From the NCBI GenBank assembly GCA_036522835.1, contig DATDFB010000057.1:3906-67905 (forward strand): 64,000 bases of DNA, given 5' to 3'. Made by a program: the position numbers and the translations under genes. Positions within the stretch are counted from its first letter, which is position 1. Each line of letters begins with the position of its first letter. Under the pieces are notes generated by a model that saw only the letters and a program-made list of their open reading frames with translations, was not told the origin of the DNA and searched no databases. Positions 16,330-62,468 of the stretch are shown here, one piece after another. This DNA is from Thermoanaerobaculia bacterium (GTDB lineage: Bacteria; Acidobacteriota; Thermoanaerobaculia; Gp7-AA8).

Positions 16330-16428
16330 CACGGAAACTTAGAACGCAGAATGCGAATGCAGAATGAAGAAAGCTTCGCCGGCGATTTCTCAATTCTGCA
16401 TTCGCATTCTGCGTTCTGAATTTCCGTG
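16330..16428. repeat. ~100-bp hairpin repeat, AGAACGCAGAATGCGAATGCAGAATG family
   Basis: cacggaaacttagaacgcagaatgcgaatgcagaatgaagaaa ... tttctcaattctgcattcgcattctgcgttctgaatttccgtg. The arms are nearly identical to the copy at 19813-19925. Confidence 0.9.
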
Positions 16429-16717: not shown

Positions 16718-17776
16718 ATGCGAGTCCTGCACCTCGCCGCCGGAAACCGCTGGACCGGAGCCGCCGCGCCGGCGTTCGCCGAGGTGGCGGCGCTGCGCGA
16801 GGCGGGAGTCGATGCGCACTACGCCTACGTCGGCGGCTACAAGCTCGAGCAGAAGCTCGCCCACGTCGGCTTCGCCCACCCCGCGATCGCCAAGGCGCAG
16901 AATCCGCTGTCGTTCCTGCGCACAGCCACGAGGCTCGAGCACCTCATCGACCACCACGGCTTCGACGTCGTGCACGCGCACCTCACCTACGATCACGTGC
17001 TGGCGCGGTTCATCGCCAAGCGGGAGAAGGTGCGGATCGTGCGGACGTTCCACTCCCGGCGGGTGATCCGCGGCGACGTCTTCACGCGGGCGCTCGTCCG
17101 GCGCACCGACGCGATTTGCGTGATCAACGACGCGCTCGCCGAGGCGGCGCCGATCCGCGGCCGTTTCGCGCTCTACACACCGCCGCCGCTCGACACGCGG
17201 CAATTCACGCCCGAGGGGCCGGACTTGCGCGGGGCCTACGGCGTCGAGGGCGATGCGCTGCTCCTCGTCGCCATCGGCAAGCTCGATCCCGCGCGCGGCT
17301 TCGAGGACGTGCTGCGGACGTACGCACTGGTACGGCAGGCCATCGCCACGGCGCGGCTGATGATCATCGGCCACGGCCCGCACCGCCCGGCGCTCGAAGC
17401 GCTGGCGAGCTCGCTGCAAATCGAGCCGATCTGGGCCGGTTATCACGAGGACGATCTCGCCGAGCACTACCGCGCCGCCGACGTGCTGCTCTTCACCGCG
17501 CGCGGCTCCGACGAGGGCCACCGCGCCGTGATCGAGGCGATGGGCTGCGGCGTCGTGCCGGCGACGTATCGCCTCGACGGCATGCCCGCGATCCTCGGCG
17601 AGCTCGGCGCGGAGTCGCTGGCGGCGTCGCCGGCGCCGCAGGCGCTGGCCGAGCGCGTGATCGCCATCGCCCAAGGCGATCTCGCCGCATCGCGCCGCGC
17701 GGCGTTCGCACGGTCGGCGGAGTTTTCGTACGGGAAGGCCGCGGAGCGGCTGATGAAGCTGTACGAGTCGCTCTAA
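16718..17776 (+). CDS. Glycosyltransferase, GT-B fold (GT4-like)
   Basis: In-frame part of track ORF 16520..17776 starting MRVLHLAAGNRWTGAAAPAF. C-terminal half reads LMIIGHGPHRPALEALA...AADVLLFTARGSDEGHRAVIEAMGCGVVPA, typical of GT4 retaining transferases. Confidence 0.82.
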   Translation: MRVLHLAAGNRWTGAAAPAFAEVAALREAGVDAHYAYVGGYKLEQKLAHVGFAHPAIAKAQNPLSFLRTATRLEHLIDHHGFDVVHAHLTYDHVLARFIAKREKVRIVRTFHSRRVIRGDVFTRALVRRTDAICVINDALAEAAPIRGRFALYTPPPLDTRQFTPEGPDLRGAYGVEGDALLLVAIGKLDPARGFEDVLRTYALVRQAIATARLMIIGHGPHRPALEALASSLQIEPIWAGYHEDDLAEHYRAADVLLFTARGSDEGHRAVIEAMGCGVVPATYRLDGMPAILGELGAESLAASPAPQALAERVIAIAQGDLAASRRAAFARSAEFSYGKAAERLMKLYESL

Positions 17777-18396
17777 ATCGTTCGCAGCAGCGCCCGCACC
17801 GGACTGGCATCCCCACCCCGAATCCGCAGCGGCGCCGCGATCAGCTCGTACGCCCCCTCGGCCACGCCGTCGAGCACGAGCCCCTCGAGGTTGGCCATGT
17901 CGTGCTCCGCGAGCGCCTGGTGCGACTCCAGCGCCTTCGACTCGAACGGATCGACCGACGGCGTGTCGATGCCGACGAGGATCACGCCATGCTGGTGCAG
18001 CACGTCGATCACCGCGGGCGAGAGGCTGGCGAAATCGTCGTTCCAGTTGCGCGGATCGGGAAACGTGCCGGTGCGAAACAGCACGCGCGGCGCGGTGATG
18101 GCCTTGCCGGCGATGTGCATCGGGCGGATGCGGTCGCCGCGCTCGACGTTGACGTGCACGACGATGCACTGGCCGATGTAGTAATCGAGCGAGCGCGAGG
18201 CGATGTCGGCGCCGCCGGCGGCGTAATGGCTCGGCGCGTCGGCGTGCGCGCCGGCGTGGAGCGTGGTGCGGACGTCGGAGAGCGTCAGGTGCGCGCCGGC
18301 GTCGATGTCGAGGCTGACGTTGCGCGCGAACGGCGTGTCCCCGGGCCAGACTGCGACGCCCGCGTCGAGCACGGGCGAGATGTCGATGAGCGTCAT
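17773..18396 (-). CDS. kynB: Cyclase-family metallohydrolase, kynurenine (aryl)formamidase-like
   Basis: 207 aa. LHAGAHADAPSHY (HxGxHxDxPxH metal motif), VGIDTPSVDP, ESHQALAEH. Overall length and order match KynB-type arylformamidases. Confidence 0.8.
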   Translation of the reverse strand: MTLIDISPVLDAGVAVWPGDTPFARNVSLDIDAGAHLTLSDVRTTLHAGAHADAPSHYAAGGADIASRSLDYYIGQCIVVHVNVERGDRIRPMHIAGKAITAPRVLFRTGTFPDPRNWNDDFASLSPAVIDVLHQHGVILVGIDTPSVDPFESKALESHQALAEHDMANLEGLVLDGVAEGAYELIAAPLRIRGGDASPVRALLRTI

Positions 18397-18400
18397 ATGA

Positions 18401-18479
18401 GTGTCATTCCGAGCCGCGAAGACGGCGAAGAATCCCGTGCCTGCCGGCAGGGGGTCCCTCGCTCCGCTCGGGATGACAC
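18401..18479. repeat. REP-like palindrome, family GTGTCATYCCGAGC
   Basis: gtgtcattccgagccgcgaagacggcgaagaatccc...cctgccggcagg...gctcgggatgacac. It fills the gap between the kynB-like start and the upstream gene's stop. Confidence 0.85.
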
Positions 18480-18484
18480 GGCGG

Positions 18485-19816
18485 TCATGCCGAGGCGATC
18501 ACTTTCAACTCGACGAGGATCGGCGTCGGCAGGGAATCGACGCCGACCGTCGTCCGCGTCGGCTGGATCTTTCCGAGCGTCTCCGCGTAGACGCGGTTGA
18601 AGCGCTCGAAGTCGCGCTTCATGTCGGTGAGGTAGACGGTGACGTCGAGAACTTTGTCGAGCGAGCTGCCGGCCTCCTCGAGGATCGCCCTGACGTTCGC
18701 GATCGTCGCGCGCGTCTGCGTCTCGATGTCGGGCGCCGGCACCTCTCCCGTCCCCGGTTTGCGCGGGCCGACGCCGGAGAGGAAGAGGAGGTTGCCGACG
18801 CGGCGCGCGTGCGGGTATGGGCCGACCGGCGGCGGCGCCTTCGGCGTGACGAGCACCTCAGGCGTCTCTTCGCCGGGCGGCGGCGCGGCTGCGGCGAGAA
18901 CGTTGTGCGTCTCCAGTCCCGTGCCGCTCGACTGCGCGAAGGTGATCGGCGCCCCTTCGTCGAACTCCTTCTCCCACTCGATCTCTTTCTGCGGGTTCGG
19001 CGTCAGCTCGACGATGGCGTTGCCGGTGCCCCACACCGGCTGGTAGTCCCACACCTTGCCGTCGTAGCGGTTGTGCTCTCCCATCAGCGCGGCCAGCCAC
19101 CAGATGGCCTTGAAGCCCATGTCGGCGTTCGCTTCGCGGGCGAAGTCGCGCGCGACCTGGGCCACGTCCTCGAGCCGCCCCTCGCCGAGCATCTCCAGGA
19201 TCTTGCGGTTCCACTCGTCGTCCTTCGCCGAGGAGACGCGGTCGTGGGCCGGGTCGATGTCGCCGACTTCGTAGCGGTTGGAGAGGTTCGTGACGACGAC
19301 GACGACGGTTTTCTTGCCGTAGTGGTCGATGGCCGCGCGGCCGGCCATGCCGAGGGCGCGCGTCTCCTCGCGCTCCGCGTAGATGTTGCAGGACACGACG
19401 GAGGCGGGGACGGCGTTGTCCGGATTGAGGAGCTTCAGCGCCACGACGGTGCCGGTGTCGATCGGAAAGCCGTGATAGCTCACCTCCGCCGCCTGCATGC
19501 CGTTCTGTTTGCAGATCGCGCAGTAGAGTTTTCCGAATTCCGGATCGACGCGGAACTCGTAGGGGATCTCGCCGAACTGGTACCAGTTCTGATCGACGAG
19601 GATCCACTTCGGCGCGGGGTCGGTCTGGAAGAGGTGGCCGATGACGGAGAACCACTGCGTGGAGTAGACGAGGATCAGCTCCGCGCCCGACGCGGCGATC
19701 TCGCGGCCGACGGCCTCGTAGCTCGCACGCAGCGACGCCCAGCCGGGGCTCTTCTCCGGCGCGAGCAGGACGTGGGGTTGGCCGGGGACGAGATAAGCCT
19801 TCTGGATCATGGCCAC
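18485..19816 (-). CDS. Fusion protein: class III (LigB-type) extradiol dioxygenase-like domain + RidA/YjgF/UK114 enamine-imine deaminase domain
   Basis: 443 aa. N-terminal ~290 aa is LigB/AmnB-like (AYLVPGQPHVLL, LILVYSTQWFSVIGH, SYHGFPIDTGTVVAL). A PPPGEETPEV linker follows. C-terminal ~125 aa is an unmistakable RidA domain (PPVGPYPHARRVGNLLFLSGVGP...QTRATIANVRAILEEAGSSLDKVLDVTVYLTDM.DF..FN.VY...PTRTTVGV..LP....VELKVIA). An alternative ATG lies at 19810. Confidence 0.78.
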   Translation of the reverse strand: MAMIQKAYLVPGQPHVLLAPEKSPGWASLRASYEAVGREIAASGAELILVYSTQWFSVIGHLFQTDPAPKWILVDQNWYQFGEIPYEFRVDPEFGKLYCAICKQNGMQAAEVSYHGFPIDTGTVVALKLLNPDNAVPASVVSCNIYAEREETRALGMAGRAAIDHYGKKTVVVVVTNLSNRYEVGDIDPAHDRVSSAKDDEWNRKILEMLGEGRLEDVAQVARDFAREANADMGFKAIWWLAALMGEHNRYDGKVWDYQPVWGTGNAIVELTPNPQKEIEWEKEFDEGAPITFAQSSGTGLETHNVLAAAAPPPGEETPEVLVTPKAPPPVGPYPHARRVGNLLFLSGVGPRKPGTGEVPAPDIETQTRATIANVRAILEEAGSSLDKVLDVTVYLTDMKRDFERFNRVYAETLGKIQPTRTTVGVDSLPTPILVELKVIASA

Positions 19817-19925
19817 GGAAAATTAGAACGCAGAATGCGAATGCAGAATGAAGAAAACGGAGTCCGTTGGCCAAGGCGCTCCGGTTTTCTCAATTCTGCA
19901 TTCGCATTCTGCGTTCTGAATTTCC
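19813..19925. repeat. ~110-bp hairpin repeat, AGAACGCAGAATGCGAATGCAGAATG family
   Basis: ccacggaaaattagaacgcagaatgcgaatgcagaatgaagaaaacgg ... ccggttttctcaattctgcattcgcattctgcgttctgaatttcc. Near-identical arms to 16330-16428 with a larger loop. Confidence 0.9.
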
Positions 19926-19930
19926 TTGAT

Positions 19931-20611
19931 TTAGTGGACGTACGTCTCCCGCTCGACGACGTCTTTCCGCGACTGGATGATCGACGTCGCGAGCAGCGCG
20001 CGCCGGCCGATCTCGTCCCACTGCGCGGTGCGCACGAGGTCCGGTACGGCGAGCGACGAGCCGAGGTTGACGGCGACGCAGCCGGCGTCGAGGTAGGGCT
20101 CGATCATGTCGAGGGCCACGGGGCCGCCGGCGAGCATCTGCACGTCGCGGATGGGGCCGCGGATGGTGCGGATGTAATCGGGGCCGCCGAGGTGCGGTGC
20201 CGGGTAGACCTTGACGATGTCGGCGCCCGCTTCCCAGGCGCGGATGATCTCGGTCGGCGTGGCCGCGCCGGCGATGGAGAGGAGGTCGTTCTCCGTCGCG
20301 TACTCGATGATCTGGTAGTCGGTGTGCGGCGAGACGATCACGTGCGCGCCGGCGCGGCGGGCCAGCGCGGCGTCGTTGGCGCTGCGCACGGTGCCGGCGG
20401 CGATGACTACGTCGGCCGCGGCGTAGCGAGCGGCGAGCTTGGCGATGAGCTCGAAGGCGTCAGGCGTGGTGAGCGTGACCTCGATGATGCGCACGCCGTT
20501 GCGCGCGTACGCGTCCGCCACGGCCTCGGCCGCCTCGGCGGAGTTTTCACGGACGACGCCGATGATCTGCTCGGTGCGGGCTTTTTCGAAAAGTTCGGTG
20601 CGGAGGGACAT
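19931..20611 (-). CDS. KDPG / 4-hydroxy-2-oxoglutarate aldolase (Eda) family class I aldolase
   Basis: 226 aa. GVRIIEVTLTTPDA (E-x-T motif), AGTV, ADIVKVYPA (Schiff-base Lys context), LAGGPV. The start is 9 nt after the kinase stop. Confidence 0.85.
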   Translation of the reverse strand: MSLRTELFEKARTEQIIGVVRENSAEAAEAVADAYARNGVRIIEVTLTTPDAFELIAKLAARYAAADVVIAAGTVRSANDAALARRAGAHVIVSPHTDYQIIEYATENDLLSIAGAATPTEIIRAWEAGADIVKVYPAPHLGGPDYIRTIRGPIRDVQMLAGGPVALDMIEPYLDAGCVAVNLGSSLAVPDLVRTAQWDEIGRRALLATSIIQSRKDVVERETYVH

Positions 20612-20620
20612 GGCCGAATT

Positions 20621-22891
20621 CTAGTTCAACCGCGCGGCCAGGTCCCTGAACTCCGTCTCCTCCCGCAACACATCCAGCCGCGGATCGACCTCGATGAACA
20701 CCAGCCACGCGCTCCGGTCCTCGTACGCCTCCCGCAGCTTCGCCAGCGCGGCCGCCTTCTCGCCCAACCCCGCATAAATGATCGCGATGTCGTACGGCGA
20801 GATGTAGCGCGTCTTGGCCTGCTCCGAGAGCATCGTCAGGATCAGCTCCGCCTCCCGCCGCTGACCGGCAATGGCGCGGGTGTGGCCGAGCATGGCCAGC
20901 AAGATCGGCACGCGGTCCGTCTCCAGCGCGCGCTGGAACGACTGCAACGCCTCCTCGTAGCGGCCCTGCTGCCCCAAGGCCATGCCGCGCCAGGCCTGGG
21001 CGGGGATGAACTTCTCGTCGAGCTCCAGCGCCTTCTCGAAGCGGCCGATGGCGGACTCGTAATCGCGCGCGAAATAGAACGGCCAGCCGCTGTGCACGAA
21101 GATGATGCGCGACAGCGGATCGAGCTCCACCGCCTTCTTCACCTGCTCGAGCGACGCGTCGAAGCGGCCGCGCGCGCAGAGGAGCATGGCGTAGCCGTCG
21201 TGCGCCGTCGCGTAGTTCGGATTCAGCTTGATGGCGCTCGTGTACGCCGCCTCCGCCCCCTCCCAATCCCACTCGTACCACCACTTCACCGCCGCCAGCG
21301 ACGCCCACGCCTCCGCGAGCGACCCGTCGATCTTCAGCGCCTGCTCGGCCGCCGCCTTCGCCTTCGGCATGGCCTCGCGCGGCGGCAGCGGGATGTTCGT
21401 CGCCAGCGTCATGAGGCTGTCGGCCAGCCCGGCGTACGCGCCGGCGAACGACGGATCGCTCTCGATGGCCTCCTGGAAGTGGACGATCCCCTTCTTCAGA
21501 CTCTCCTCGGTGCGCTTGTTCCACTGATAGCGCCCCTTGAGATAGAGCTGGTACGCCTCCGTGTTTTTCGTCGACGTCTTGCGCAGCCGCTTCTTCTCCG
21601 CGCCGGTGAGGCGGATGCGCAGCGCTTCGGCGATCTCCTGCGACATCTCTTCCTGCAGCGTGACGAGGTCGGCGATCTGGCGGTTGTACTGCTCGCCCCA
21701 GAGGTGCGCGCCATCGAGGGAGTCGACCAGCTCGACGTTGATGACGATGCGGTCGCCGACGTGCTTCACCCGCCCGCTCAACACCGCGCGCACGCGCAGG
21801 TCGCGGCCGACGGCGCGCGGGTCGACTTCGCGGCCTTTGTAGCGGAACACGGTGCTGCGCGCCATCACCTTGAGCTTCGGCAGTTGCGAGAGCTTGTTGA
21901 TGACACCCTCGGTCACGCCGTCGGAGAGATAGTCGGTCTCGGCGTCGGCGCCGCCGTTCTGGAACGGCAGGACGGCGATGGAGTCGATGGCTTTCGACTT
22001 CCGCGTGCGCGGGCGCGGCAGCAGGTCGATGCGCGTCGTGGAGCTCGACGAGATCGCGCGCAGCGTCAGCGCCAGGTCGCGCGCGGACTGAAACCGCTGC
22101 AGCGGGTTCTTTTCCACGCACCCTTCGATGACGCGCTGGAACTCCGGCGGCACGGCCTCGGCCAGCTCGTCACGCGAGACGTCTTCCTTGAGAATGGCCG
22201 CGATCGTGGCCGCGCCGGAGCCGCGCTGGAACGGCTTCTTCGACGTGACCATCTCGTAGAGGATGCAGCCGAGGGAAAAGATGTCCGCAGTGCCGTCGAC
22301 CGCCTCGCCCTTGAGCTGTTCCGGCGCCATGTAGGCGAGCGTCCCCACGATCGTCCCCGGATCGGTGCGGAACTTCCGCGTCGGCAGGTTGCCGGTGTCC
22401 TCGCCGGTGAGGTACGGGTCGGTCTGGGCGAGGCCGAAGTCGAGGATCTTGATGCGCCCTTCGCGCGTGAGGAAGACGTTCTCCGGCTTGAGATCGCGGT
22501 GGACCACGGCGCGCGAGTGCGCCGCCGCCAGGCCTTCGGCGATCTCCGCGCCGATGTCGACCGCGGCGCGCCATTCGATGATCGCGTTCGCGAGCCGGGC
22601 GCGCAGCGTCTCCCCTTCGAGCAGCTCCGTGACGACGAAGAAGGTGCCGTCCTGGTCGCCGTAGTCGAAGATGGAGAGGACGTTCGGGTGCGACAGCGAC
22701 GCGATGGCGCGCGCCTCGCGCTCGAAGCGCGCCAGGGCATCGGCGTCGCGCGCGGAATCGGGCAGCAGCACCTTGATGGCCACGTCGCGGCCGAGGCGGG
22801 GGTCGCGGCCGCGGTAGACCGCACCCATCCCTCCCTCGCCGAGGAGCGTAAGAACTTCGTACGGACCGACGCGGGAGCCTGAAGCCAGCAT
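20621..22891 (-). CDS. Ser/Thr protein kinase with TolB-like N-terminal-type domain and C-terminal TPR repeats
   Basis: GPYEVLTLLGEGGMGAVYRGRD...AIKVL (VAIK), HRDLKPENVFL, DFGLA, APE. Then IAVLPFQNGGADAETDYLSDGVTEGVINKLS and TPR units. Start chosen at MLASGSRVGPYEV (22891); in-frame ATGs at 22933 and 22939 would overlap the divergent mglA-like gene. Confidence 0.9.
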   Translation of the reverse strand: MLASGSRVGPYEVLTLLGEGGMGAVYRGRDPRLGRDVAIKVLLPDSARDADALARFEREARAIASLSHPNVLSIFDYGDQDGTFFVVTELLEGETLRARLANAIIEWRAAVDIGAEIAEGLAAAHSRAVVHRDLKPENVFLTREGRIKILDFGLAQTDPYLTGEDTGNLPTRKFRTDPGTIVGTLAYMAPEQLKGEAVDGTADIFSLGCILYEMVTSKKPFQRGSGAATIAAILKEDVSRDELAEAVPPEFQRVIEGCVEKNPLQRFQSARDLALTLRAISSSSTTRIDLLPRPRTRKSKAIDSIAVLPFQNGGADAETDYLSDGVTEGVINKLSQLPKLKVMARSTVFRYKGREVDPRAVGRDLRVRAVLSGRVKHVGDRIVINVELVDSLDGAHLWGEQYNRQIADLVTLQEEMSQEIAEALRIRLTGAEKKRLRKTSTKNTEAYQLYLKGRYQWNKRTEESLKKGIVHFQEAIESDPSFAGAYAGLADSLMTLATNIPLPPREAMPKAKAAAEQALKIDGSLAEAWASLAAVKWWYEWDWEGAEAAYTSAIKLNPNYATAHDGYAMLLCARGRFDASLEQVKKAVELDPLSRIIFVHSGWPFYFARDYESAIGRFEKALELDEKFIPAQAWRGMALGQQGRYEEALQSFQRALETDRVPILLAMLGHTRAIAGQRREAELILTMLSEQAKTRYISPYDIAIIYAGLGEKAAALAKLREAYEDRSAWLVFIEVDPRLDVLREETEFRDLAARLN

Positions 22892-22922: not shown

Positions 22923-23822
22923 ATGGTCCTCATTAACAAAGCGATTAACGAAGTGACGGTGAAGCTCGTCTATTACGGACCCGGTCTGTGCGGGAAGACG
23001 ACCAACCTGGAGAAGATCTACGGAAACCCGAAGCTCGAGAACAAAGGGAAGATGATCTCGATGTCGACGGAGACGGACCGAACGCTCTTTTTCGACTTCA
23101 TGCCGATGGAGCTCGGCACGATCGGCGGCCAGAAAGTGCGCGTGCAGCTCTACACCGTGCCGGGGCAGGTGTTCTACGACGCCACGCGCAAGCTCGTGCT
23201 GCGCGGCGCGGACGGCGTGGTCTTCGTGGCCGACTCGCAGTCGTCGATGCGGGAGTCGAACCTCCAATCGCTCGAGAACCTGATCACGAACCTGCGCCTC
23301 AACCGCATCGATCCGCAGAAAATCGCGCTCGTCTTTCAGTACAACAAGCGCGACCTGCCGAACGTCGACAGCGTCGAGGACATGAACGGATACCTGCATC
23401 CCGACGGCATTCCGGTCGTCGAGGCGGCGGCGATCAACGGCACCGGAGTGACGGCCACGCTGCGCACGGCGGTGGCGCGGATCCTCGACAACCTGAAGAA
23501 GGGCGTCGACACGACGCTGCACGAGGAGCCGGAGCTGGCGCCGCCGGACTTGAGCGTGGGGCTGTCGGGAAAACCTGTCGATCCGTTCGCACCAGTCGAC
23601 GAAGAGCCATTCGAGGCCGATGTCGCCGTGGCGGTGGCCGAGGAGGAGACGGAGGACCCGTTCGCGGCGCCGGCGGCGGAGATCCACGACACGGGCGCCG
23701 AGCGCGCCGAGCTCGAGGCCATGCTGGCGGGGGCGCGCGAGGTCGTGGCCTCGCTCGAAGCCGCGCTCGAGAAAGCGCGCCACCAGGAACGGCGGCTCGC
23801 GGATAAACTCGGCGCGCTTTGA
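22923..23822 (+). CDS. mglA: MglA-family Ras-like small GTPase with ~105-aa acidic C-terminal extension
   Basis: MVLINKAINEVTVKLVYYGPGLCGKTTN has the same N-terminal spacing as Myxococcus MglA. SMSTETDRTLFFDFMP, YTVPGQVFYDATRKL (MglA-specific TVPGQ), QYNKRDLP. The tail EEPELAPP...VDPFAP...EDPFAAP...AELEAMLAGAREVVASLEAALEKARHQERRLADKLGAL is not found in canonical MglA. Confidence 0.9.
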   Translation: MVLINKAINEVTVKLVYYGPGLCGKTTNLEKIYGNPKLENKGKMISMSTETDRTLFFDFMPMELGTIGGQKVRVQLYTVPGQVFYDATRKLVLRGADGVVFVADSQSSMRESNLQSLENLITNLRLNRIDPQKIALVFQYNKRDLPNVDSVEDMNGYLHPDGIPVVEAAAINGTGVTATLRTAVARILDNLKKGVDTTLHEEPELAPPDLSVGLSGKPVDPFAPVDEEPFEADVAVAVAEEETEDPFAAPAAEIHDTGAERAELEAMLAGAREVVASLEAALEKARHQERRLADKLGAL

Positions 23823-24520
23823 CCTGGTTCCACGAATGGTTCGGCGAGGAGTACCTCGCGCTCTACTCGCATCGTGACGACGACGAGGCGAGGCAGCAGG
23901 TCGTCTTCTTCAAAGAGCATTGCGGCGCCGTGCGCGGGCCGCTCCTCGACCTCGCCTGCGGCAAGGGGCGGCACATCGCCGAGCTGCGCGCCGCCGGCTA
24001 TGGCGCGGTCGGCTGCGACCTCTCCTTCACGCTGCTGCGCACCGGCCGCGCCGAGTACGGGCCGCTCCCGGTGGCGCGCGCGGACATGCGCGCGCTGCCG
24101 TTCTGCACGGCGGGCTTCGCCGGCCTGGTGAGCTTCTTCACCTCGTTCGGGTACTTCTCGGTTGAGGAGGAAAACGTGGCCGTCGTACGCGAGATGGCGC
24201 GCGTGCTGGAAAAGGGGGCGGTGTTCCTCTTCGACTACCTGAATCTGCACCGGGAGCTGGAGAAACTGGTGCAGCGCGAGACGCGCGGCGACGTCACGAT
24301 CGAGCGCTGGTTCGACTCGCAGGACCGCTCGTTCAACAAACGGATAACAATCGGACAAAAGCGCTACCTGGAGCGCGTTCGCGGATACGATCTCGACGAG
24401 ATCTCGATGATGTTCACGACGGCGGGCCTGACGATTCGCGCCGCGTTCGGCGATTTCCTCGGTGCGCCGTTCGAAATGAGCTCGCCGCGGCTGATCGTGC
24501 TGGGGACGAAGAATCGATGA
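23819..24520 (+). CDS. Class I SAM-dependent methyltransferase (candidate bacillithiol N-methyltransferase, NmbA-like by context)
   Basis: 233 aa. TTG start overlaps the mglA-like stop (TTGA). LLDLACGKGRHIAELRAAGYGAVGCDLS (motif I) and FAGLVSFFTSFGYF. The gene end overlaps the bshC start (ATGA). The NmbA assignment is contextual inference only. Confidence 0.8.
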   Translation: MTWFHEWFGEEYLALYSHRDDDEARQQVVFFKEHCGAVRGPLLDLACGKGRHIAELRAAGYGAVGCDLSFTLLRTGRAEYGPLPVARADMRALPFCTAGFAGLVSFFTSFGYFSVEEENVAVVREMARVLEKGAVFLFDYLNLHRELEKLVQRETRGDVTIERWFDSQDRSFNKRITIGQKRYLERVRGYDLDEISMMFTTAGLTIRAAFGDFLGAPFEMSSPRLIVLGTKNR

Positions 24521-26004
24521 CGATTCAGTTCCCGCTGGACTGTTATCCCGGGTTCAACCGATTCGTCCTCGACTGGCTCGGCGGCGATGCGAGGTTTCTT
24601 TGTCGCGGTGCCCACTCGGTAGGGGCGCACGGCGTGCGCCCGCGGCAACTTGCCGACGCGCTGATCGAATCCAACAAACGCTGGGGCCTCTTCGTCGACG
24701 ACGACGTCCGCCGCTGGCAACGCGGTGAAGGCATGACCGTCATCGCCGGCCAGCAAACCGGCTTCGCCGGCGGCCCTCTCTACACGCTCGTCAAGATCGC
24801 CACGCTCGTGCGGATGAAGCGCGACAACGAAGCGCGCGGCATCCCCACCACCGTCTTTTTCTGGCTGGCAACCGAGGATCACGACTTCGCCGAGGTGGCA
24901 AGCGTTGCCTTTCCAGCGGGCGACGCGCGCGCGCAGCGCGACCTCGTCTACCTCCGCGCCGCGCGCGCCGTGGAGACGCGCGACGTCGTCGGCCCGCAGC
25001 CCGTCCCGCCGGTGCTGATCGACGAGCTCCTTGCGTTTTTCAACATGCCGCGGCCGCCGTGGCTGCGCGAAGGGATCTCGTTCCGCGACTCCTTCGCGGA
25101 GCTGATCGCCGGCGTCTTTCCGCGCGACGTCGTGCTCGTCGATGCGCTGCTGCCGGAGCTGCGGCGCGCGGGAGCGCCGCTCTTCGCATCGATCGTGTCG
25201 ACGTGGGACGCGATTCAGAGCGCGCTCGCCACGCGCGCCGCCGAGCTGACCGCCGCCGGCTACACGCCGCAAGTCGCGCCGCGCGAGAACGGGCAGTACA
25301 CGCTGCTCTACGAGATCGGCGAGCGCGGCAACCGCGAAATCACCGACAAAGCGGCCGTGCCGGAATGGACATCCACGTCGGCGCTCACGCGGCCTTTGCT
25401 GCAGGACTCCGTGCTGCAACCTGACGTCTTCGTCGGCGGGCCGGCCGAGGTCGCGTACTACGCGCAGATCGCGCCGCTGCACGAAATGCTCGGCATTGCC
25501 ATGCCGCGCGTTGCGCTGCGCGCGCACGCGCTCATCGCGCCGAAGCGCATCGCCCGCGCGATCGAGCGCTACGACATCAAACCGGAGGACATCTTCACGA
25601 GCGCGGATGAACTGCTGGCCACGCGCGAGCCGGAAGGCGTCGCCACGATTCGCGAAGCGGCGGAAAAGGGCCGCAAAGAGCTGACGGACGTTTTCACGCA
25701 GATCGGCGACGTCGCATTTCCCGCCGATCACGCCATTGCCAGAAGAGTCAGCCGCTCCATCGGCCACATCGAGTACCACTTCGACAAGCTCGCCGAGCGG
25801 GCCACGCGCTCGCTCGTGCGCAAGGACCGCGAGCGCTACGCCGCGGTGCGCGAGCTCGTGGCCGCGCTCTTCCCCGACCGCCAGGTGCAGGACCGCGTCG
25901 CCGGCTGGTTTGCCTACTGGAGCGAATCCGGCAACCATCTCGTCGAGCGCTTGATCGAGGAGATCGAGCCGGACAGCGACGTCTGCAGGATCGTGACGCT
26001 ATGA
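24517..26004 (+). CDS. bshC: Bacillithiol biosynthesis cysteine-adding enzyme
   Basis: 495 aa. VIAGQQTGFAGGPLYTLVKIATLV matches the BshC hallmark (GGQQxGxxxGPLYTxxK). Length and position next to bshB/bshA also fit. Confidence 0.82.
   Translation: MTIQFPLDCYPGFNRFVLDWLGGDARFLCRGAHSVGAHGVRPRQLADALIESNKRWGLFVDDDVRRWQRGEGMTVIAGQQTGFAGGPLYTLVKIATLVRMKRDNEARGIPTTVFFWLATEDHDFAEVASVAFPAGDARAQRDLVYLRAARAVETRDVVGPQPVPPVLIDELLAFFNMPRPPWLREGISFRDSFAELIAGVFPRDVVLVDALLPELRRAGAPLFASIVSTWDAIQSALATRAAELTAAGYTPQVAPRENGQYTLLYEIGERGNREITDKAAVPEWTSTSALTRPLLQDSVLQPDVFVGGPAEVAYYAQIAPLHEMLGIAMPRVALRAHALIAPKRIARAIERYDIKPEDIFTSADELLATREPEGVATIREAAEKGRKELTDVFTQIGDVAFPADHAIARRVSRSIGHIEYHFDKLAERATRSLVRKDRERYAAVRELVAALFPDRQVQDRVAGWFAYWSESGNHLVERLIEEIEPDSDVCRIVTL
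24618..24641. repeat. Half copy of the GGTAGGGGCGCACGGCGTGCGCCC palindrome, in frame inside bshC
   Basis: ggtaggggcgcacggcgtgcgccc translates as VGAHGVRP in the BshC N-terminal region. Full copies lie at 32153-32209 and 53541-53589. Confidence 0.8.
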
Positions 26005-26720
26005 AACCCGTCGACGCCATCTTCTTCGACGCCCATCCCGACGACATCGAGCTCTCCTGCGGCGGCACGATCGTCGACTTCGTCAGCCGCGGCCTCAGGG
26101 TCGGCATCATTGACCTCACCAGCGGCGAGATGGGGACGCGCGGCACGCCCGAGACGCGCCGCCGCGAGGCCTCCGCCTCCGCCGAGATCCTCGGCGCGTC
26201 CTTCCGCGAGCAGCTCGACTTCGGCGACGGCGCCCTCCGCACCGGCCGCGAGGAAGAGCTGCAGATCATCGGCGTCATCCGCAAGTACCGCCCGAAAATC
26301 ATCTTCGCGCCGTGGCCCGACGAGCGCCATCCCGACCACGCCCGTGCCGGGCGCCTCATCACCGAGGCGTCGTTCTACGCGGGGCTGCGCGCGCTGGAGA
26401 CGGCGCTGCCCGCGCACCGCCCGCAGGTCACGATCTACTACCTGCAGAACTACCTTCCGCCGATCAGCTTCGTCGTCGACGTGTCGAAGGCGTGGCCGAC
26501 GAAGATGCGCGCCATCGGCGCCTTCGAGTCGCAGTTCTACAAACCGAATTCGACCGAGCCGGAGACGTTCATCGCCAAGAAGTCGTTTCTCGACATGATC
26601 GAGGCGCGCGGCCGCCACTTCGGCGCGCTCATCGGCGCGGAGTACGGCGAGGCCTACGTGACGAAGCAGCCGCCGAAGATCGAGGACGTGATCGCGGCGT
26701 ACAGCGGGAGGGAACCGTGA
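26001..26720 (+). CDS. bshB: N-acetyl-alpha-D-glucosaminyl L-malate deacetylase (PIG-L/LmbE family)
   Basis: 239 aa. FFDAHPDDIELSCGGTI (AHPDD...GG), DLTSGEMGTRG, ERHPDHARAG. ATGA overlap with bshC. Confidence 0.85.
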   Translation: MKPVDAIFFDAHPDDIELSCGGTIVDFVSRGLRVGIIDLTSGEMGTRGTPETRRREASASAEILGASFREQLDFGDGALRTGREEELQIIGVIRKYRPKIIFAPWPDERHPDHARAGRLITEASFYAGLRALETALPAHRPQVTIYYLQNYLPPISFVVDVSKAWPTKMRAIGAFESQFYKPNSTEPETFIAKKSFLDMIEARGRHFGALIGAEYGEAYVTKQPPKIEDVIAAYSGREP

Positions 26721-27841
26721 GAATCGGCATCACCTGCTACCCCACCTTCGGCGGCTCCGGCGTGGTAGCCACGGAGCTCGGCATCGCTCTGGCCAAGATG
26801 GGCGACGACGTCCACTTCATCAGCTACGCGCCGCCGTCGCGGCTCAACATCCTCCACGAGCGCGTGCGCTTCCACGAAGTCACGGTCACGCCGTATCCGC
26901 TCTTCGATCCGTTCCCGCCGTACACGCTGGCGCTGGCGACGAAGATGGCGGAGATCGCCGAGTACGAGCGCCTCGACGTGCTGCACGTGCACTACGCGAT
27001 CCCGCACGCCATCAGCGCCCACCTCGCCCGCGAGATCCTCGGCGACAAGATGCGCTTCGTCACCACCCTGCACGGCACCGACATCACCCTCGTCGGGCGC
27101 GACGCGTCGTATCTGCCGATCACGAAGTTCGGCATCGAAGTCTCCGACGGCGTCACGGCCGTGTCGCATTGGCTGCGCGACGAGACGGAGAAGAACTTCG
27201 GCACGAAGAAGGAGATCGCCGTCATCCCGAACTTCGTCGATCCGCTGCGCTTCCAGCGCCACGAGAGCGCGTTCTGCCACCTCTTCGGCGACGCCGGCGA
27301 CCGCCTCCTCTGCCACGTCTCGAACTTCCGTCCCGTGAAGCGGATCATGGACGTGCTGGCCGTCTTCGAGCGCGTGCTGCGCGTGATCCCGAGCCGCCTG
27401 GTGATGATCGGCGACGGCCCCGACCGTTCCAAGGCCGAGGCGTTCTGCCGTCAACATCATTTGAAGGACCGCGTCTTTTTCCTCGGCAATGTTCCGAATC
27501 TCGAAGAGATCGTCGGCGCCAGCGACGTGTTCCTCCTGCCCAGCGAGCACGAGTCGTTCGGCATGGCCGCGCTGGAGGCGATGGCCTCGGAAGTCCCGGT
27601 CATCGCCACGCGCGCGGGCGGACTGCCCGAGGTCGTGGTCGACGGCGAGACCGGATACCTCCTGCCGGTCGGCGACGTCGACGCCATGGCCGAGCGCGCC
27701 ATCGCCATCCTCACCGACAAGGTCCTGCAGCGCCGCCTCGGGCGCGCCGGACGCGCGCTGGCGGAGGAGCAGTTCAACGTGAACCGCGTCGTGCCGATGT
27801 ACCGCGAGTTCTATGAGAAGTTCCTGGTTCTTCGTTCTTAG
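26717..27841 (+). CDS. bshA: N-acetyl-alpha-D-glucosaminyl L-malate synthase (GT4)
   Basis: GTG start overlapping the bshB stop (GTGA). VRIGITCYPTFGGSGVVATELG, LHVHYAIPHA, TTLHGTDITLVG, HVSNFRPVKR, ESFGMAALEAMASEVPVIATRAGGLPEVV closely parallel Bacillus BshA. Confidence 0.88.
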   Translation: MRIGITCYPTFGGSGVVATELGIALAKMGDDVHFISYAPPSRLNILHERVRFHEVTVTPYPLFDPFPPYTLALATKMAEIAEYERLDVLHVHYAIPHAISAHLAREILGDKMRFVTTLHGTDITLVGRDASYLPITKFGIEVSDGVTAVSHWLRDETEKNFGTKKEIAVIPNFVDPLRFQRHESAFCHLFGDAGDRLLCHVSNFRPVKRIMDVLAVFERVLRVIPSRLVMIGDGPDRSKAEAFCRQHHLKDRVFFLGNVPNLEEIVGASDVFLLPSEHESFGMAALEAMASEVPVIATRAGGLPEVVVDGETGYLLPVGDVDAMAERAIAILTDKVLQRRLGRAGRALAEEQFNVNRVVPMYREFYEKFLVLRS

Positions 27842-30362: not shown

Positions 30363-30440
30363 GGGTTCTTAGTTCTTAGTTCTTGGTTCTTAAGTTTTGC
30401 CGAAACCCAAGAACCTAACAACATAAGAACCTAAGAACCA
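30363..30440. repeat. Low-complexity hairpin (TTCTTAG repeats / CTAAGAA repeats)
   Basis: ggttcttagttcttagttcttggttcttaagtttt-gccgaaa-cccaagaacctaacaacataagaacctaagaacc. It occupies most of the 118-bp divergent gap upstream of proS. Confidence 0.8.
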
Positions 30441-30456
30441 CTACAATCCCCCGCCC

Positions 30457-32157
30457 ATGCGCTGGAGCCAGTCCTTCATTCACACCCTGCGCGAAGTTCC
30501 GGCCGACGCGGACGTCGTCAGCCAGAGACTGATGATGCGCGCCGGCATGATCCGCAAAGTAGCCGCCGGAATTTACACCTATCTCCCCCTCGGCCTCCGT
30601 TCGATGCAGAAGCTCGAGGCCATCATCCGCGAGGAGATGAACCGCGCCGGCGCGGTGGAGCTCCTCGGGCCGACCATCCACCCGGGCGAGTTGTGGATGG
30701 AGTCGGGACGCTGGCAGCGCTACGGCAAGGAGCTCCTGCGCATCAAAGACCGCCACGAGCGCGACTTCGTCTACGGCCCCACGGCCGAGGAGGTCGTGAC
30801 CGACGCCGTGCGGAACACGCTCAACTCCTATCGACAGCTCCCGATCAACCTCTATCAGATCCAGACCAAGTTTCGCGACGAAGTGCGGCCCCGCTTCGGC
30901 CTCATGCGCGGGCGCGAGTTCACCATGAAGGACGCGTACTCCTTCCACGCCACGGCATCGTCGCTCGACGAGACGTACGAGAAGATGCGCGACGCCTACA
31001 GCGCCATCTTCCGCCGCTGCGCGCTCGACCACGTGCCGGTCGAGGCCGACACCGGCAACATCGGCGGCAGCGCCTCGCACGAGTTCATGGTGCTGGCGCA
31101 GTCGGGCGAGGACGCGGTCGTGTCGTGCCCCAACTGCCGCTACGGCGCGAACGTGGAGAAGGCCACGTCGAAGTTCTTCCTCGACGAGCCGGAGCCCGCG
31201 CCGATGGAAGCGATGGCCGAATTGCACACGCCGGGAACGCAGACGATCGACGACGTCGGCCGCTTCCTCGGCAAGCCGACCTCGCAGCTCGTCAAGACCC
31301 TCGTCTTCGACACCGACAAAGGGTGTCTGATGGTCCTCGTGCGCGGCGACCGCGAGGGGAACGAGGTCAAGATCAAGAACGTCTCCGGCGCCGAGTGGAT
31401 GGAGATGATGCCCGACGCGCGCTTCGAGGAGGCCACGGGCGGCCCGGTCGGCTATTGCGGTCCGGTCGGGACGAAGGCGGCACGCGTGATCGCCGACGTA
31501 TCGCTCAAAGGCCACGTCAACTGGATCGTCGGTGGCAATAAGAAGGACTACCACCTCGGCGGCGCGAATCCCGGCCGCGACTTCCCCGAGCCGGAGTACG
31601 CCGACGTCACGACCGTCTTCGCCGGCGATCCCTGTCCGCGCTGCGGCACGCCGCTGGAGATCAACCGCGGCATCGAGGTCGGCCATGTGTTCAAGCTCGG
31701 AACGAAGTACTCCGAGCCGATGGGCTGCACGTTCCTCGATGAGAACGGCGAGCGCAAGCCGATGATCATGGGCTGCTACGGCTTGGGCGTCGGCCGCACG
31801 GTCGCCGCCGCGGTGGAGCAGAGCCACGACGACGACGGCATCATCTGGCCGATCCCGATCGCGCCGTACACCGTCGTCGTGACCGCGCTCGGCAAAGAGG
31901 AGAGCGTGCGCGCGACGGCCGAGGAGGTCTACGCGAAGCTCCTGGCCGCCGGCGTCGACGTGCTCTTCGACGACCGCGACGAGCGCCCCGGCGTGAAGTT
32001 CAAGGACGCGGATCTGATCGGTTTTCCGCTGCGCATCGCCGTCGGCGCGAAGAGCCTGGCGAACGGCGTCATCGAGTGGAGCTGGCGCAAGGATCGCGCG
32101 AAGCAGCTCGGGCCGCCGGGCGAGGTGGTGGAGACGGTCATAACGGCCGCTCGGTAG
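30457..32157 (+). CDS. proS: Proline--tRNA ligase (bacterial type with editing domain)
   Basis: 566 aa. MRWSQSFIHTLREVPADADVVSQRLMMRAGMIRKVAAGIYTYLPLG, class II motifs FRDEVRPRFGLMRGREFTMKDAYSF and GCYGLGVGR, anticodon-binding C-terminus. The stop TAG lies inside a palindromic repeat. Confidence 0.97.
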   Translation: MRWSQSFIHTLREVPADADVVSQRLMMRAGMIRKVAAGIYTYLPLGLRSMQKLEAIIREEMNRAGAVELLGPTIHPGELWMESGRWQRYGKELLRIKDRHERDFVYGPTAEEVVTDAVRNTLNSYRQLPINLYQIQTKFRDEVRPRFGLMRGREFTMKDAYSFHATASSLDETYEKMRDAYSAIFRRCALDHVPVEADTGNIGGSASHEFMVLAQSGEDAVVSCPNCRYGANVEKATSKFFLDEPEPAPMEAMAELHTPGTQTIDDVGRFLGKPTSQLVKTLVFDTDKGCLMVLVRGDREGNEVKIKNVSGAEWMEMMPDARFEEATGGPVGYCGPVGTKAARVIADVSLKGHVNWIVGGNKKDYHLGGANPGRDFPEPEYADVTTVFAGDPCPRCGTPLEINRGIEVGHVFKLGTKYSEPMGCTFLDENGERKPMIMGCYGLGVGRTVAAAVEQSHDDDGIIWPIPIAPYTVVVTALGKEESVRATAEEVYAKLLAAGVDVLFDDRDERPGVKFKDADLIGFPLRIAVGAKSLANGVIEWSWRKDRAKQLGPPGEVVETVITAAR

Positions 32158-32209
32158 GGGCGCACGGCGTGCGCCCTCAGCGTCCGGGCGCACGCCGTGC
32201 GCCCCTACC
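32153..32209. repeat. REP-like palindrome, family GGTAGGGGCGCACGGCGTGCGCCC
   Basis: Perfect 24-bp inverted arms ggtaggggcgcacggcgtgcgccc / gggcgcacgccgtgcgcccctacc separated by 9 nt. It contains the proS stop codon. Confidence 0.9.
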
Positions 32210-32224
32210 TGTTATCCTTTTCCT

Positions 32225-35519: not shown

Positions 35520-35521
35520 CG

Positions 35522-36145
35522 TCACCGTGCGGCGGCGAGCGAATCCAGCGGAACGTCGAGGAGCTCGAATTTCTCCCAACCCTTGAAGTCGTAGTGCCAC
35601 CACTCCGACGGCAACGGCTCGAAGCCGTGTCGCGTCATGACCTCGCGCAACCTGGCGCGGTTGGCGATGGCCTCGGCGGGGAGATCGTTGAAGTCGTTCC
35701 GCGCGCGCGGCGTGAAGTCGTCGAAGCCGGTCGGCATCAGGAGCTCCTTGCCGGTCTCGAGGTCGATGAGCGTCAGATCGACGGCCGCGCCGCGGTTGTG
35801 CCGCGAGCCCTTCTTCGGGTCGGCGACATAGTCGGGATTCTTGATCGGCTCCCACATCGCCACCGTCACGCGGTAGGGGCGGTAGGCGTCCCAGACTTTC
35901 AGCCCGAGGCGTTGCGGCGCGAGCTCGCGCTCGACATCGGCGAGCGCCGCGGCCACCGGCGCGCGGAGGTAGGCCTTCGCCACCGGATACAGCTGCGTGT
36001 GCATGAAGTTGTTCGTCGTGGCGTAGCGGAGGTCGAGGGCGACGCCGGTGGTGGAAAGGTCGATCATCTCCCGCGGGTCGACGCTGCGCGCCACGCGCGG
36101 GCCGGTGGCGCAGGCGATCAGCAGGAGCAGCAGAAGCCGCTTCAT
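35522..36145 (-). CDS. D-alanyl-D-alanine dipeptidase (VanX/DdpX, peptidase M15D), lipoprotein form
   Basis: 207 aa. Lipobox MKRLLLLLLIAC, WDAYRPY, SRHNRGAAVDLTL (Zn ligands), EWWHYD. Confidence 0.88.
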   Translation of the reverse strand: MKRLLLLLLIACATGPRVARSVDPREMIDLSTTGVALDLRYATTNNFMHTQLYPVAKAYLRAPVAAALADVERELAPQRLGLKVWDAYRPYRVTVAMWEPIKNPDYVADPKKGSRHNRGAAVDLTLIDLETGKELLMPTGFDDFTPRARNDFNDLPAEAIANRARLREVMTRHGFEPLPSEWWHYDFKGWEKFELLDVPLDSLAAAR

Positions 36146-36165
36146 TCGAAGACATAATACCGGCC

Positions 36166-62420: not shown

Positions 62421-62468
62421 GCGCCCTCCTCAAAGATCTGTCGTTTGGAGTAGCCTGCCGCCGATTAT

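Follow-up and report, generated by a model that had tools for sequence, protein, structure and literature searches.

Gene content of the locus

The window (the whole 64-kb stretch of DNA analysed here) carries four consecutive minus-strand genes, encoding a Ser/Thr kinase, an aldolase, a 443-residue fusion protein and a KynB-like protein (Table 1). ORF calls agree with the coordinates given for these genes in the earlier note on this DNA, and the sequence likewise bears out its 9-nt gap between kinase and aldolase and its palindromes in the other two gaps, which were detected as an inverted repeat and a weaker hairpin. In L166 and L167, two metagenome contigs that are independent of each other, the same genes and gaps recur, excluding an assembly artefact for the locus; gene callers in both picked ATG 19810 as the start of the fusion gene.

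Table 1 Features of the locus, in positions of the window
Feature	Position	Strand	Basis or remark
Ser/Thr kinase gene	20621-22891	-	start ATG 22891 retains Gly-rich loop; TTG 22939 also open
Spacer between kinase stop and aldolase ATG, 9 nt, AATTCGGCC	20612-20620	-	sequence read
Predicted Eda-type aldolase gene	19931-20611	-	ORF and HMM
Dispersed palindromic repeat (REP/MITE-like) in the aldolase/fusion gap (19817-19930)	19814..19928	.	inverted repeat
Fusion gene (443 aa)	18485-19816	-	start GTG 19816 or ATG 19810
Predicted AmnA/CnbCa-type alpha-subunit domain (LigB fold), fusion residues 1-271	19004..19816	-	PDB, Foldseek, ligand positions
Conserved extension past the end of stand-alone AmnA (EKEFDEG...GTGLETHNV), fusion residues 272-306	18899..19003	-	
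Variable Ala/Pro-rich linker, fusion residues 307-326	18839..18898	-	identity drop, length variation
RidA-family domain, putative 2-aminomuconate-deaminase type, fusion residues 327-443 and stop	18485..18838	-	
Second dispersed palindromic repeat, in the fusion/kynB gap	18397..18484	.	hairpin
KynB-like gene	17773-18396	-	ORF and HMM

The repeat between the aldolase and fusion genes has 45-nt arms that are 89% complementary, with a fold energy of -66.8 kcal/mol (z = -11.2) and a second copy at 16341-16417. The hairpin between the fusion and kynB genes is weaker (-46.5 kcal/mol, z = -2.8) and has a related copy at 37757-37779. Neither palindrome is present in L005, a relative of about 92% nucleotide identity, in which the aldolase/fusion junction reads TAGATG and the fusion and kynB genes overlap by ATGA. 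By their insertion, the two hairpins may have come to interfere with co-expression in the window's strain.

The kinase is a Hanks-type Ser/Thr kinase (Pkinase, 1.2e-51) with HRDLKPEN, DFG and APE motifs, a TolB-N-like segment and C-terminal TPRs that match TPR families, and about 31 bp separate its gene from a divergently oriented Ras/MglA-like GTPase gene. The aldolase gene product is predicted to be an Eda-type class I (KDPG/KHG) aldolase, as it matches PF01081 (4e-36) and the T. maritima KDPG aldolase 1wa3 (1e-31) and scores 164.5 bits against TIGR01182, over the cut-off of 156.05. The Schiff-base Lys, in its IVKVYP motif, lines up with the ILKLFP segment of T. maritima Eda. The KynB-like product appears to be a KynB-type arylformamidase of the kynurenine formamidase family, with 221.7 bits against TIGR03035 (just under the cut-off of 223.05), matches to the kynurenine formamidases 4cob (2.7e-50, full length) and 4cog (1.6e-48), and a retained HAGAHADAPSH metal motif.

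Domains of the fusion protein

The LigB::RidA fusion is real, with matches to PF02900 (1.9e-19) and PF01042 (1.1e-29, 103 bits) on one polypeptide, and both motifs read by eye in the earlier note are present, VVTNLSNRY at residues 174-182 and PTRTT at residues 419-423. In phmmer searches of the PDB, the N-terminal domain matched alpha chains (7txy_A, 1.2e-58; 3vsg_A, 3.7e-52; 8ihg_B, 2e-50) far ahead of beta chains, which reached only 1e-22 to 1e-19, and alpha chains took Foldseek ranks 1-5 with TM-scores normalised to the target of 0.84-0.86. These chains belong to AmnAB/CnbCaCb 2-aminophenol (2-amino-5-chlorophenol) 1,6-dioxygenase (PDB 3vsg-3vsj, 8ihg and 7txy), the alpha subunit of which is 35-37% identical to the fusion domain and has likewise lost the iron ligands and the catalytic His.

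In the alignment, G12, Q54, D232 and N180 of the fusion stand at the positions of CnbCb H13, H62, E251 and H195, which are reported as the ligands and base of CnbCb (Li et al. 2013) and were checked here by conservation in the alignment. The equivalent residues are G, Q, D and G in crystallised CnbCa and G, Q, D and S in the AmnA of the ARO system. Among the fusions, G12, Q54 and N180 are invariant across all 85, and D232 is invariant across 55 homologues. These matches and replacements indicate that the N-terminal domain is an AmnA/CnbCa-type, non-catalytic alpha subunit. The earlier note had rightly read Asn at the place of the catalytic His, since N180 aligns with the catalytic His of beta subunits, and its fallback of a non-canonical or AmnA-like LigB half was correct. 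The check that it proposed for a metal triad and catalytic His found, at the level of sequence, all of them replaced, a loss of metal ligands that the note had itself listed among its grounds for refutation, so that ring cleavage cannot be assigned to this domain and the polypeptide would hold one of the two chemistries first attributed to it. A self-contained four-gene pathway, with a ring-cleaving if non-canonical LigB half fused to the deaminase and the kinase heading or regulating the genes, is favoured by the single strand, the short kinase/aldolase gap and the two domain matches on one polypeptide, but the residues that it calls for, a catalytic His and three metal ligands, are replaced as in alpha subunits proven to be non-catalytic.

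Beyond the end of stand-alone AmnA, the extension has 15 invariant residues among 55 homologues and AlphaFold2 pLDDT values below 50, and an EFDEE motif is found in divergent relatives too. Across residues 272-319, linker included, mean pairwise identity is 0.65-0.73, against 0.80-0.87 in both domains, and homologue lengths differ in the linker region.

The C-terminal domain scores 105.8 bits against TIGR00004, just under the cut-off of 106.25, and its S347, G348, R421 and K438 are invariant. It matches the 2-aminomuconate deaminase AmnD/AmnE of Pseudomonas sp. AP-3 (PDB 6izh) at 8e-24, having in common with it the Rid fold, the conserved Ser-Gly of the ligand cleft, the Arg of P-x-R-T-T-V, and a Lys in E-x-K-V that replaces the Glu of ordinary RidA. 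RTTV and E-L-K-V of the fusion agree with 6izh (ARTTV and EIKV) and not with 2dyy or RidA, the ordinary proteins reading ARS.VEV or ARVAVEV and E-I-E at these positions, yet PH0854 (2dyy) scores higher overall. The combination of RTTV and E-x-K-V may be diagnostic of 2-aminomuconate deaminase as opposed to housekeeping RidA. In the alignment, the fusion shows gaps in place of the long Lp2 loop that is inserted in AmnE, and known 2-aminomuconate deaminases, which in known clusters serve the same pathway as AmnAB, are free-standing trimers or hexamers of 14-16 kDa, whereas this one is fused to AmnA.

Gene arrangements in relatives

In total, 85 Thermoanaerobaculia loci were compared, of which 77 could be classified by the gene upstream of the fusion. 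In 49 of these (class A), amnC-(membrane protein)-amnB stands immediately before the fusion, and in 27, the window among them (class B), the Eda-type aldolase does; no class-A locus contains the aldolase. The class-A amnB encodes a true AmnB orthologue, matching CnbCb (3vsg_B) over residues 3-290 at 3.7e-130 with roughly 70% identity by eye, and TIGR03216 (564 bits) assigns the class-A dehydrogenase to the 2-hydroxymuconic-semialdehyde-dehydrogenase type. The order of known clusters, amnB then amnA, is thereby found in two thirds of the relatives, and because the most divergent fusions (L081, L083 and L084) also show it, the amnB-fusion order is probably ancestral. The aldolase-fusion arrangement recurs in 27 species-level lineages, mostly with KynB next, and most class-B loci have translationally coupled aldolase/fusion gaps of -21 to +22 nt.

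Neither amnB nor amnC was found in the 64-kb window, and in relatives they are found either just ahead of the fusion or at another chromosomal site, so the four genes are not the compact, self-contained unit that had been proposed. None of the 27 class-B loci has amnB within 10 kb. Among 66 informative metagenome amnB loci, 28 are not followed by the fusion ("solo" amnB) and have GC content like that of class-B loci, and on a 290-kb contig (Ga0247666_1000002) some 58 kb lie between a class-B locus and amnB. We assume that amnB likewise occupies a separate locus in the window's own genome.

Another reading is that class-B fusions act without AmnB, the RidA domain serving as a general enamine/imine deaminase for the aldolase or KynB and the alpha domain as a scaffold or in some other role. 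Consistent with this are the distance or absence of amnB, the coupling of aldolase and fusion genes, and a locus (L070) that keeps amnC and the fusion with no amnB between them. However, the alpha domain, with a mean pairwise identity of 0.866 in class B (0.833 in class A) and 60% invariant columns, outconserves the class-B RidA domain (0.815). The share of solo amnB (42%) is also close to that of class B (35%), as expected if amnB is kept, amnB does share a contig with a class-B locus, and alpha and beta subunits proved insoluble on being expressed singly, alpha without beta in the case of M. rosaria (PMC10470539). We consider a class-B fusion without AmnB unlikely.

The operon had been described as kinase-headed, but a kinase precedes the aldolase in just 6 of the 20 class-B loci with enough upstream sequence and occurs in no class-A locus, and in L002 four unrelated small genes intervene between kinase and aldolase. 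The kinase is thus a neighbour and no conserved part of the unit. This distribution, the ligand loss in the alpha domain and the bona fide amnB adjoining the fusion in relatives contradict the self-contained four-gene pathway, which we regard as highly improbable.

The LLM gene, which lies ahead of the amn genes in class A, is 16 kb away and inverted in the window, which shows that a rearrangement has occurred. As the flanking GT-Trm112-Wzy-sigma-HEAT region is syntenic across the whole class, conserved adjacency alone is a weak sign of a functional link. Of the 78 loci whose downstream sequence is long enough, 46 have KynB after the fusion; in class B this is so for 23 of 26 loci, and in class A 29 of 44 loci lack KynB. 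Since it is found after the fusion in both arrangements, its link to the fusion predates the rearrangement. The aldolase, KynB or both could nevertheless be functionally unrelated neighbours that a rearrangement joined to the fusion and that a low rearrangement rate has retained there, with Eda acting in the metabolism of sugar acids or hydroxy-oxoglutarate and KynB in the ordinary breakdown of tryptophan. The displaced LLM gene, the equal synteny of flanking housekeeping genes, the fit of the aldolase to a generic eda model and its absence from all class-A loci favour this, as does the canonical amn pathway, in which the aldolase is DmpG-type and not Eda-type (PMC10470539), whereas the age of the KynB link and the survival of aldolase/fusion/kynB stop/start overlaps through about 70% protein divergence speak against it. 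Such a relationship, which would be compatible with the role proposed below for the fusion, is a possibility that we hold only tentatively.

Proposed role in 2-aminophenol-type meta-cleavage

The 443-residue protein is, in our judgement, quite likely an AmnA::AmnD fusion partnered by AmnB from another locus in 2-aminophenol-type meta-cleavage. The amino-aromatic (2-aminophenol/kynurenine-type) context first suggested for these genes was correct. Of the undescribed pathway suggested with it, what is undescribed is the fusion together with the splitting of the genes between loci; the amn/cnb "modified meta-cleavage" pathway type was already known. The locus does not encode a self-contained new pathway; it represents the known system of 2-aminophenol meta-cleavage in a fused version.

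In the proposed mechanism, the alpha domain would pair with the iron-containing AmnB beta subunit, encoded at another locus in the class-B lineage, and the resulting alpha-beta heteromer would cleave a 2-aminophenol-type ring. An AmnC-type dehydrogenase would then oxidise the semialdehyde, and the tethered deaminase would convert 2-aminomuconate, an unstable enamine, to 4-oxalocrotonate and ammonia. Because the AmnC step falls between those of dioxygenase and deaminase, simple two-step channelling is inapplicable; the tether, made up of the conserved 35-residue extension and the variable linker, may hold the deaminase at the dioxygenase so that labile intermediates are not lost. The instability of 2-aminomuconate is such that it needs to be generated in situ for assay (PMC6742747), and alpha subunits take the outer position in an alpha-beta-beta-alpha tetramer (PMC10470539). 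The Eda-type aldolase, co-transcribed in the class-B lineage, may split a 4-hydroxy-2-oxo acid downstream, and this is the weakest link of the scheme.

Compared with AmnAB/CnbCaCb, the fusion differs in bearing the extension and the C-terminal deaminase domain, and in the window it stands without an adjacent amnB. Full amn/cnb clusters combine amnB, amnA, amnC and the deaminase with genes for a decarboxylase, a hydratase and a DmpG/DmpF-type aldolase and dehydrogenase. Of this content, the window has amnA::deaminase alone, relatives add amnC and amnB, and lower-pathway genes for a FAH-type decarboxylase/hydratase and DmpFG were not seen in the window or flanks. The actinobacterial ARO microcompartment locus also shows a lineage-specific grouping of AmnAB, AmnC and the deaminase, with later pathway genes at satellite loci (PMC10470539), but there a protein shell encloses the enzymes, whereas here there is a covalent fusion and there are no shell genes. 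With the bacterial kynurenine pathway (KynB, PDB 4cob/4cog), the locus shares a KynB orthologue directly downstream of the fusion, and 2-aminomuconate is a late intermediate of that pathway as well; kynA, kynU, cupin-type 3-hydroxyanthranilate dioxygenase and ACMS decarboxylase were found neither in the window nor in the 10-kb flanks of relatives.

The previously undescribed fusion variant is widespread in soil Acidobacteriota. Of the neighbours, KynB is retained most widely; it probably frees the aromatic amine by deformylation, and if it does supply this amine, the system would sit in tryptophan/kynurenine or N-formyl-aminophenol catabolism.

The two halves of the fusion protein

All four minus-strand genes described in the earlier note were recovered from the ORF list and the sequence, with Pfam and NCBIfam matches backing each, as were the 9 nt between the kinase stop codon and the aldolase ATG and the PTRTT and VVTNLSNRY motifs of the fusion. 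The same genes with the same gaps occur on two independent metagenome contigs (L166 and L167), and the locus is therefore not an assembly artefact. Exact-protein look-ups led from KynB to contigs of 56 kb and 24 kb, neither of which extends beyond the window, and returned no record for the purD product.

Genes and dispersed repeats at the fusion locus
Feature	Position in the window	Strand	Basis
Hanks-type Ser/Thr kinase with TPRs	20621-22891	-	ORF list, sequence, Pfam and NCBIfam
Eda-type aldolase	19931-20611	-	ORF list, sequence, Pfam and NCBIfam
LigB::RidA fusion, 443 aa	18485-19816	-	ORF list, sequence, Pfam and NCBIfam
KynB-like arylformamidase	17773-18396	-	ORF list, sequence, Pfam and NCBIfam
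Repeat family 1, dispersed palindrome (REP/MITE-like)	16341-16417 and 19825-19917		
Repeat family 2, dispersed palindrome (REP/MITE-like)	18455-18477 and 37757-37779		

Compared with PDB sequences, the N-terminal 270 residues of the fusion match the alpha (AmnA-type) subunits of 2-aminophenol 1,6-dioxygenases (7txy_A, 1.2e-58; 3vsg_A, 3.7e-52; 8ihg_B, 2e-50), whereas matches to the catalytic beta subunits are far weaker (~1e-20). Foldseek ranked the chains as the sequence search did, with TM-scores normalised to the target (TMt) of 0.84-0.86 for alpha chains versus 0.73-0.78 for beta chains; the AlphaFold2 model used, built from an alignment of little diversity, has only a modest mean pLDDT of 66.7 as a result and served for the fold search alone; neither domain packing nor the linker was read from it. 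Beta subunits (CnbCb and two Thermoanaerobaculia AmnB sequences) were then aligned with alpha subunits. Residues H13, H62 and E251, the iron ligands, and H195, the catalytic base (numbering after Li et al. 2013), are kept in every beta sequence aligned. At these positions the window fusion has G12, Q54, D232 and N180; in the crystallised alpha subunits they are G/Q/D/G and G/Q/D/S. All 85 fusions have G12, Q54 and N180, and D232 is invariant in 55 homologues. Together, the sequence and structure searches advised in the earlier note and this alignment recovered the LigB fold with neither the metal ligands nor the catalytic His. As the ligand and base positions are replaced in the manner of crystallised alpha subunits, and the best matches are alpha chains, the attractive reading of this half as a fused ring-cleaving dioxygenase is wrong, and the note's fallback, "AmnA-like", was right: judged by its sequence, the domain is an AmnA-like alpha subunit and not a dioxygenase.

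Residues 327-443 form a Rid domain that retains the ligand-cleft Ser-Gly and Arg (cleft residues from PMC6742747). In the alignment it has P-x-R-T-T-V and E-x-K-V in common with 2-aminomuconate deaminase 6izh, in positions where ordinary RidA proteins carry ARS/A-VEV and E-I-E. The stretch that joins the two domains includes a 35-residue segment (residues 272-306, window 18899-19003), with 15 invariant positions across 55 homologues (EKEFDEG...GTGLETHNV), a low-confidence structure prediction and no counterpart in stand-alone or crystallised AmnA, which may be a docking motif. Variable-linker behaviour is confined to residues 307-326. Databases name the fusion "dioxygenase alpha subunit" or "Rid family hydrolase", each of which describes half of the protein.

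Gene order in relatives and the location of amnB

Every one of the 120 best matches to the fusion carries both domains, at 75-94% identity (alignment-based); their sources are soil metagenomes and Thermoanaerobaculia MAGs. In the GTDB species genomes, 503 related stretches were confirmed by tblastn; the best 80 of the 503 are all from Thermoanaerobaculia or Acidobacteriota, and some of the remainder may be RidA-only matches. A metagenome protein collection holds at least about 240 clusters with both domains among the clusters listed. Clustering at 50% identity leaves only four or five full-length fusion clusters, and stand-alone AmnA-like proteins are common. Three large proteins (P0270, P0273 and P0281; 680-1030 aa) have an AmnA-like domain at residues ~405-730, so that other alpha-subunit fusion architectures exist in metagenomes.

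Neighbours mapped by tblastn at 85 loci show two arrangements. Class A (49 loci) runs from an LLM oxidoreductase through an asparaginase-II-like protein, an aldehyde dehydrogenase, an optional 400-aa membrane protein, a 300-aa LigB protein and an optional small PF05635 protein to the fusion, with KynB following in 15 of 44. Class B (27 loci, including the window and its relatives L005 and L002) consists of a Ras-like GTPase on the opposite strand, an optional kinase, the Eda aldolase and the fusion, with KynB following in 23 of 26. Downstream, both classes share GT4(-), Trm112, Wzy_C, ECF sigma, HEAT anti-sigma and DUF4097 genes. The class-A dehydrogenase is of the 2-hydroxymuconic-semialdehyde-dehydrogenase (AmnC) type (TIGR03216, 564 bits), and the 300-aa LigB protein is a genuine AmnB (3vsg_B, 3.7e-130; 8ihg_A, 1e-124; all ligands present). 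Class A therefore reads amnC-amnB-amnA::amnD(-kynB), which is the content of the upper part of the known 2-aminophenol modified meta-cleavage pathway (PMC10470539, PMC3790839). Extreme conservation and an NCBI tRNA-modification name had raised the possibility that this beta protein is a different, housekeeping LigB protein, a reading rejected because CnbCb/AmnB match at 1e-125 to 1e-130 with no ligand missing. The AmnB orthologues (P0121, P0130, P0145 and others) are extremely conserved: 1469 members fall into one of the 90%-identity clusters, and the orthologues are ~70% identical to proteins of Planctomycetota, Bdellovibrionota and Sericytochromatia; given the CnbCb match, the NCBI name "tRNA U-34 ... 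biosynthesis protein" looks like a mis-annotation.

The class-A order is probably ancestral, since the most divergent fusions (L081, L083 and L084) show it. A neighbour-joining tree placed the window group inside the class-A crown although its gene order is class B, a placement not relied on because the distances to class A and class B are nearly equal. The small PF05635 gene ("23S rRNA intervening sequence protein") lies between amnB and the fusion in about half of the class-A loci (for example L003, 9657-10001). In locus L070 (7978-9956), the order is asparaginase-II-like gene, amnC, PF05635 gene, fusion and kynB with no amnB between, which may be an intermediate or deletion state.

Both amnB and amnC are absent from the 64-kb window: tblastn with the fusion N-domain and the L003 proteins as queries found no amnB paralogue or other amn gene in it, and Pfam searches of nearly all other window ORFs revealed housekeeping genes and no further aromatic-catabolic genes. 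In class A, the asparaginase-II-like gene, amnC and amnB come immediately after a block of genes for ProRS, a Toluene_X porin, peptidase M15(-) and the LLM oxidoreductase. The window counterpart of this block (ProRS to LLM, 30427-37332) is inverted relative to the fusion and 16 kb from it, with the asparaginase-II-like gene, amnC and amnB missing beside it, indicating that a rearrangement separated the genes. A scan of 80 metagenome AmnB loci found the fusion after amnB in 38 and not in 28 ("solo"), with 14 too short to tell. Solo contexts are often ThiF-amnB-BNR(-)-GalU or DUF255-membrane protein-amnB, and the solo share (42%) and GC (0.60-0.68) match the expectation if class-B genomes keep amnB elsewhere. 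Direct evidence that a class-B genome keeps an unlinked amnB comes from the 289,704-bp contig Ga0247666_1000002, which carries fusion P0478 in the order GTPase(-)-aldolase-fusion-GT(-)-Trm112 at ~269-270 kb (L165) and a solo amnB at ~211 kb (L143), ~58 kb away. The mean pairwise identity of the alpha domain is 0.866 in class B versus 0.833 in class A, and within class B it exceeds that of the Rid domain (0.815). As the alpha domain stays conserved in class B and both subunits are reported to be insoluble alone (PMC10470539), this comparison supports a class-B fusion that still serves an unlinked AmnB. The stop codon of solo amnB is overlapped by a conserved gene for a ~155-165-aa secreted or membrane protein in two unrelated contexts (L143, 8903-9370; L133, 6403-6900).

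Junctions and neighbouring genes

The palindromes reported in the other two gaps are present, as an inverted repeat with 45-nt arms between aldolase and fusion (fold energy -66.8 kcal/mol, z = -11) and a weaker palindrome between fusion and kynB (z = -2.8). Both belong to the dispersed repeat families of the table, copies of which were inserted into three intergenic junctions of the syntenic block, and L005 (DATELQ010000110.1), with ~92% nucleotide identity to the window and identical gene order, is without them at those junctions. In L005 the aldolase stop codon runs straight into the start codon of the fusion (TAGATG), and kynB overlaps the fusion gene by ATGA; gaps in most class-B loci are -21 to +22 nt. 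Tight coupling is thus the ancestral state of the aldolase-fusion-kynB trio, and the window strain has gained two hairpin insertions. A scan for sigma-70 promoters and terminators yielded nothing above shuffles.

Among the 20 class-B loci that extend far enough upstream, only 6 have a kinase ahead of the aldolase; L002 has four small toxin-antitoxin-like genes between kinase and aldolase, and in other loci the aldolase directly faces the GTPase gene. The locus is neither the kinase-headed operon nor the new compact pathway proposed in the earlier note; it is a known system in a fused variant and split-locus arrangement. The Ras/MglA-like small GTPase gene (~22923-23822, plus strand) is divergent from the kinase gene, with ~31 bp between starts, and is kept beside the aldolase even in loci without the kinase; GTPase and kinase may together make up a signalling module that has nothing to do with the catabolic genes. 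Elsewhere, the window holds a bacillithiol biosynthesis cluster (bshC, bshB/PIG-L and GT4 bshA-like; 24517-27841) in this acidobacterial MAG lineage and, 40 kb from the fusion, a PhzF-family isomerase gene beside a urate-oxidase-N-like membrane protein gene (60840-62429, minus strand).

Proposed route, assembly and significance

In the route that the evidence best supports, AmnB encoded at another locus would join the fusion alpha domain to form the dioxygenase, AmnC would oxidise the ring-cleavage product, the tethered Rid domain would deaminate 2-aminomuconate, and KynB would probably supply the free amine; substrate identity, heteromer formation and channelling are what we infer. KynB is truly orthologous to kynurenine formamidases of known crystal structure (4cob, 2.7e-50). 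The Eda aldolase (TIGR01182 above cut-off; 1wa3 at 1e-31) is found in class B only and differs from the aldolase type of canonical amn clusters, and its functional link is uncertain, since synteny extends over the entire region throughout the class.

As alpha is peripheral in the alpha-beta-beta-alpha tetramer (PMC10470539) and Rid domains form trimers or hexamers (PMC6742747), higher-order assemblies of the fusion complex are conceivable. Joining a two-fold symmetric unit to a usually trimeric or hexameric domain could build a large lattice or cage, in which the 272-306 segment might dock AmnC. Such an assembly might act in a route, shared across Thermoanaerobaculia, that handles aminophenols derived from tryptophan/kynurenine with an AmnAB-type and not a cupin-type dioxygenase. 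Taken jointly, as a lattice that docks AmnC and confines intermediates in this route, the reading is improbable. If true, the lattice would do without a shell what the ARO microcompartment does in actinobacteria, and would keep in the unstable intermediates that arise when aminophenol is cleaved and that cyclise on their own.

In the full-text literature searched, neither an AmnA-Rid fusion nor the presence of amn genes in Thermoanaerobaculia is described, and the AmnA::deaminase architecture is near-universal in soil members of this abundant, uncultured class. For enzymologists, it offers a natural example in which a paralogous subunit that has lost catalysis now tethers a downstream enzyme. 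The identity of the fusion is useful for annotating this soil lineage, and its architecture suggests that Thermoanaerobaculia routinely carry out 2-aminophenol-type degradation, with tryptophan or plant benzoxazinoids as possible sources.
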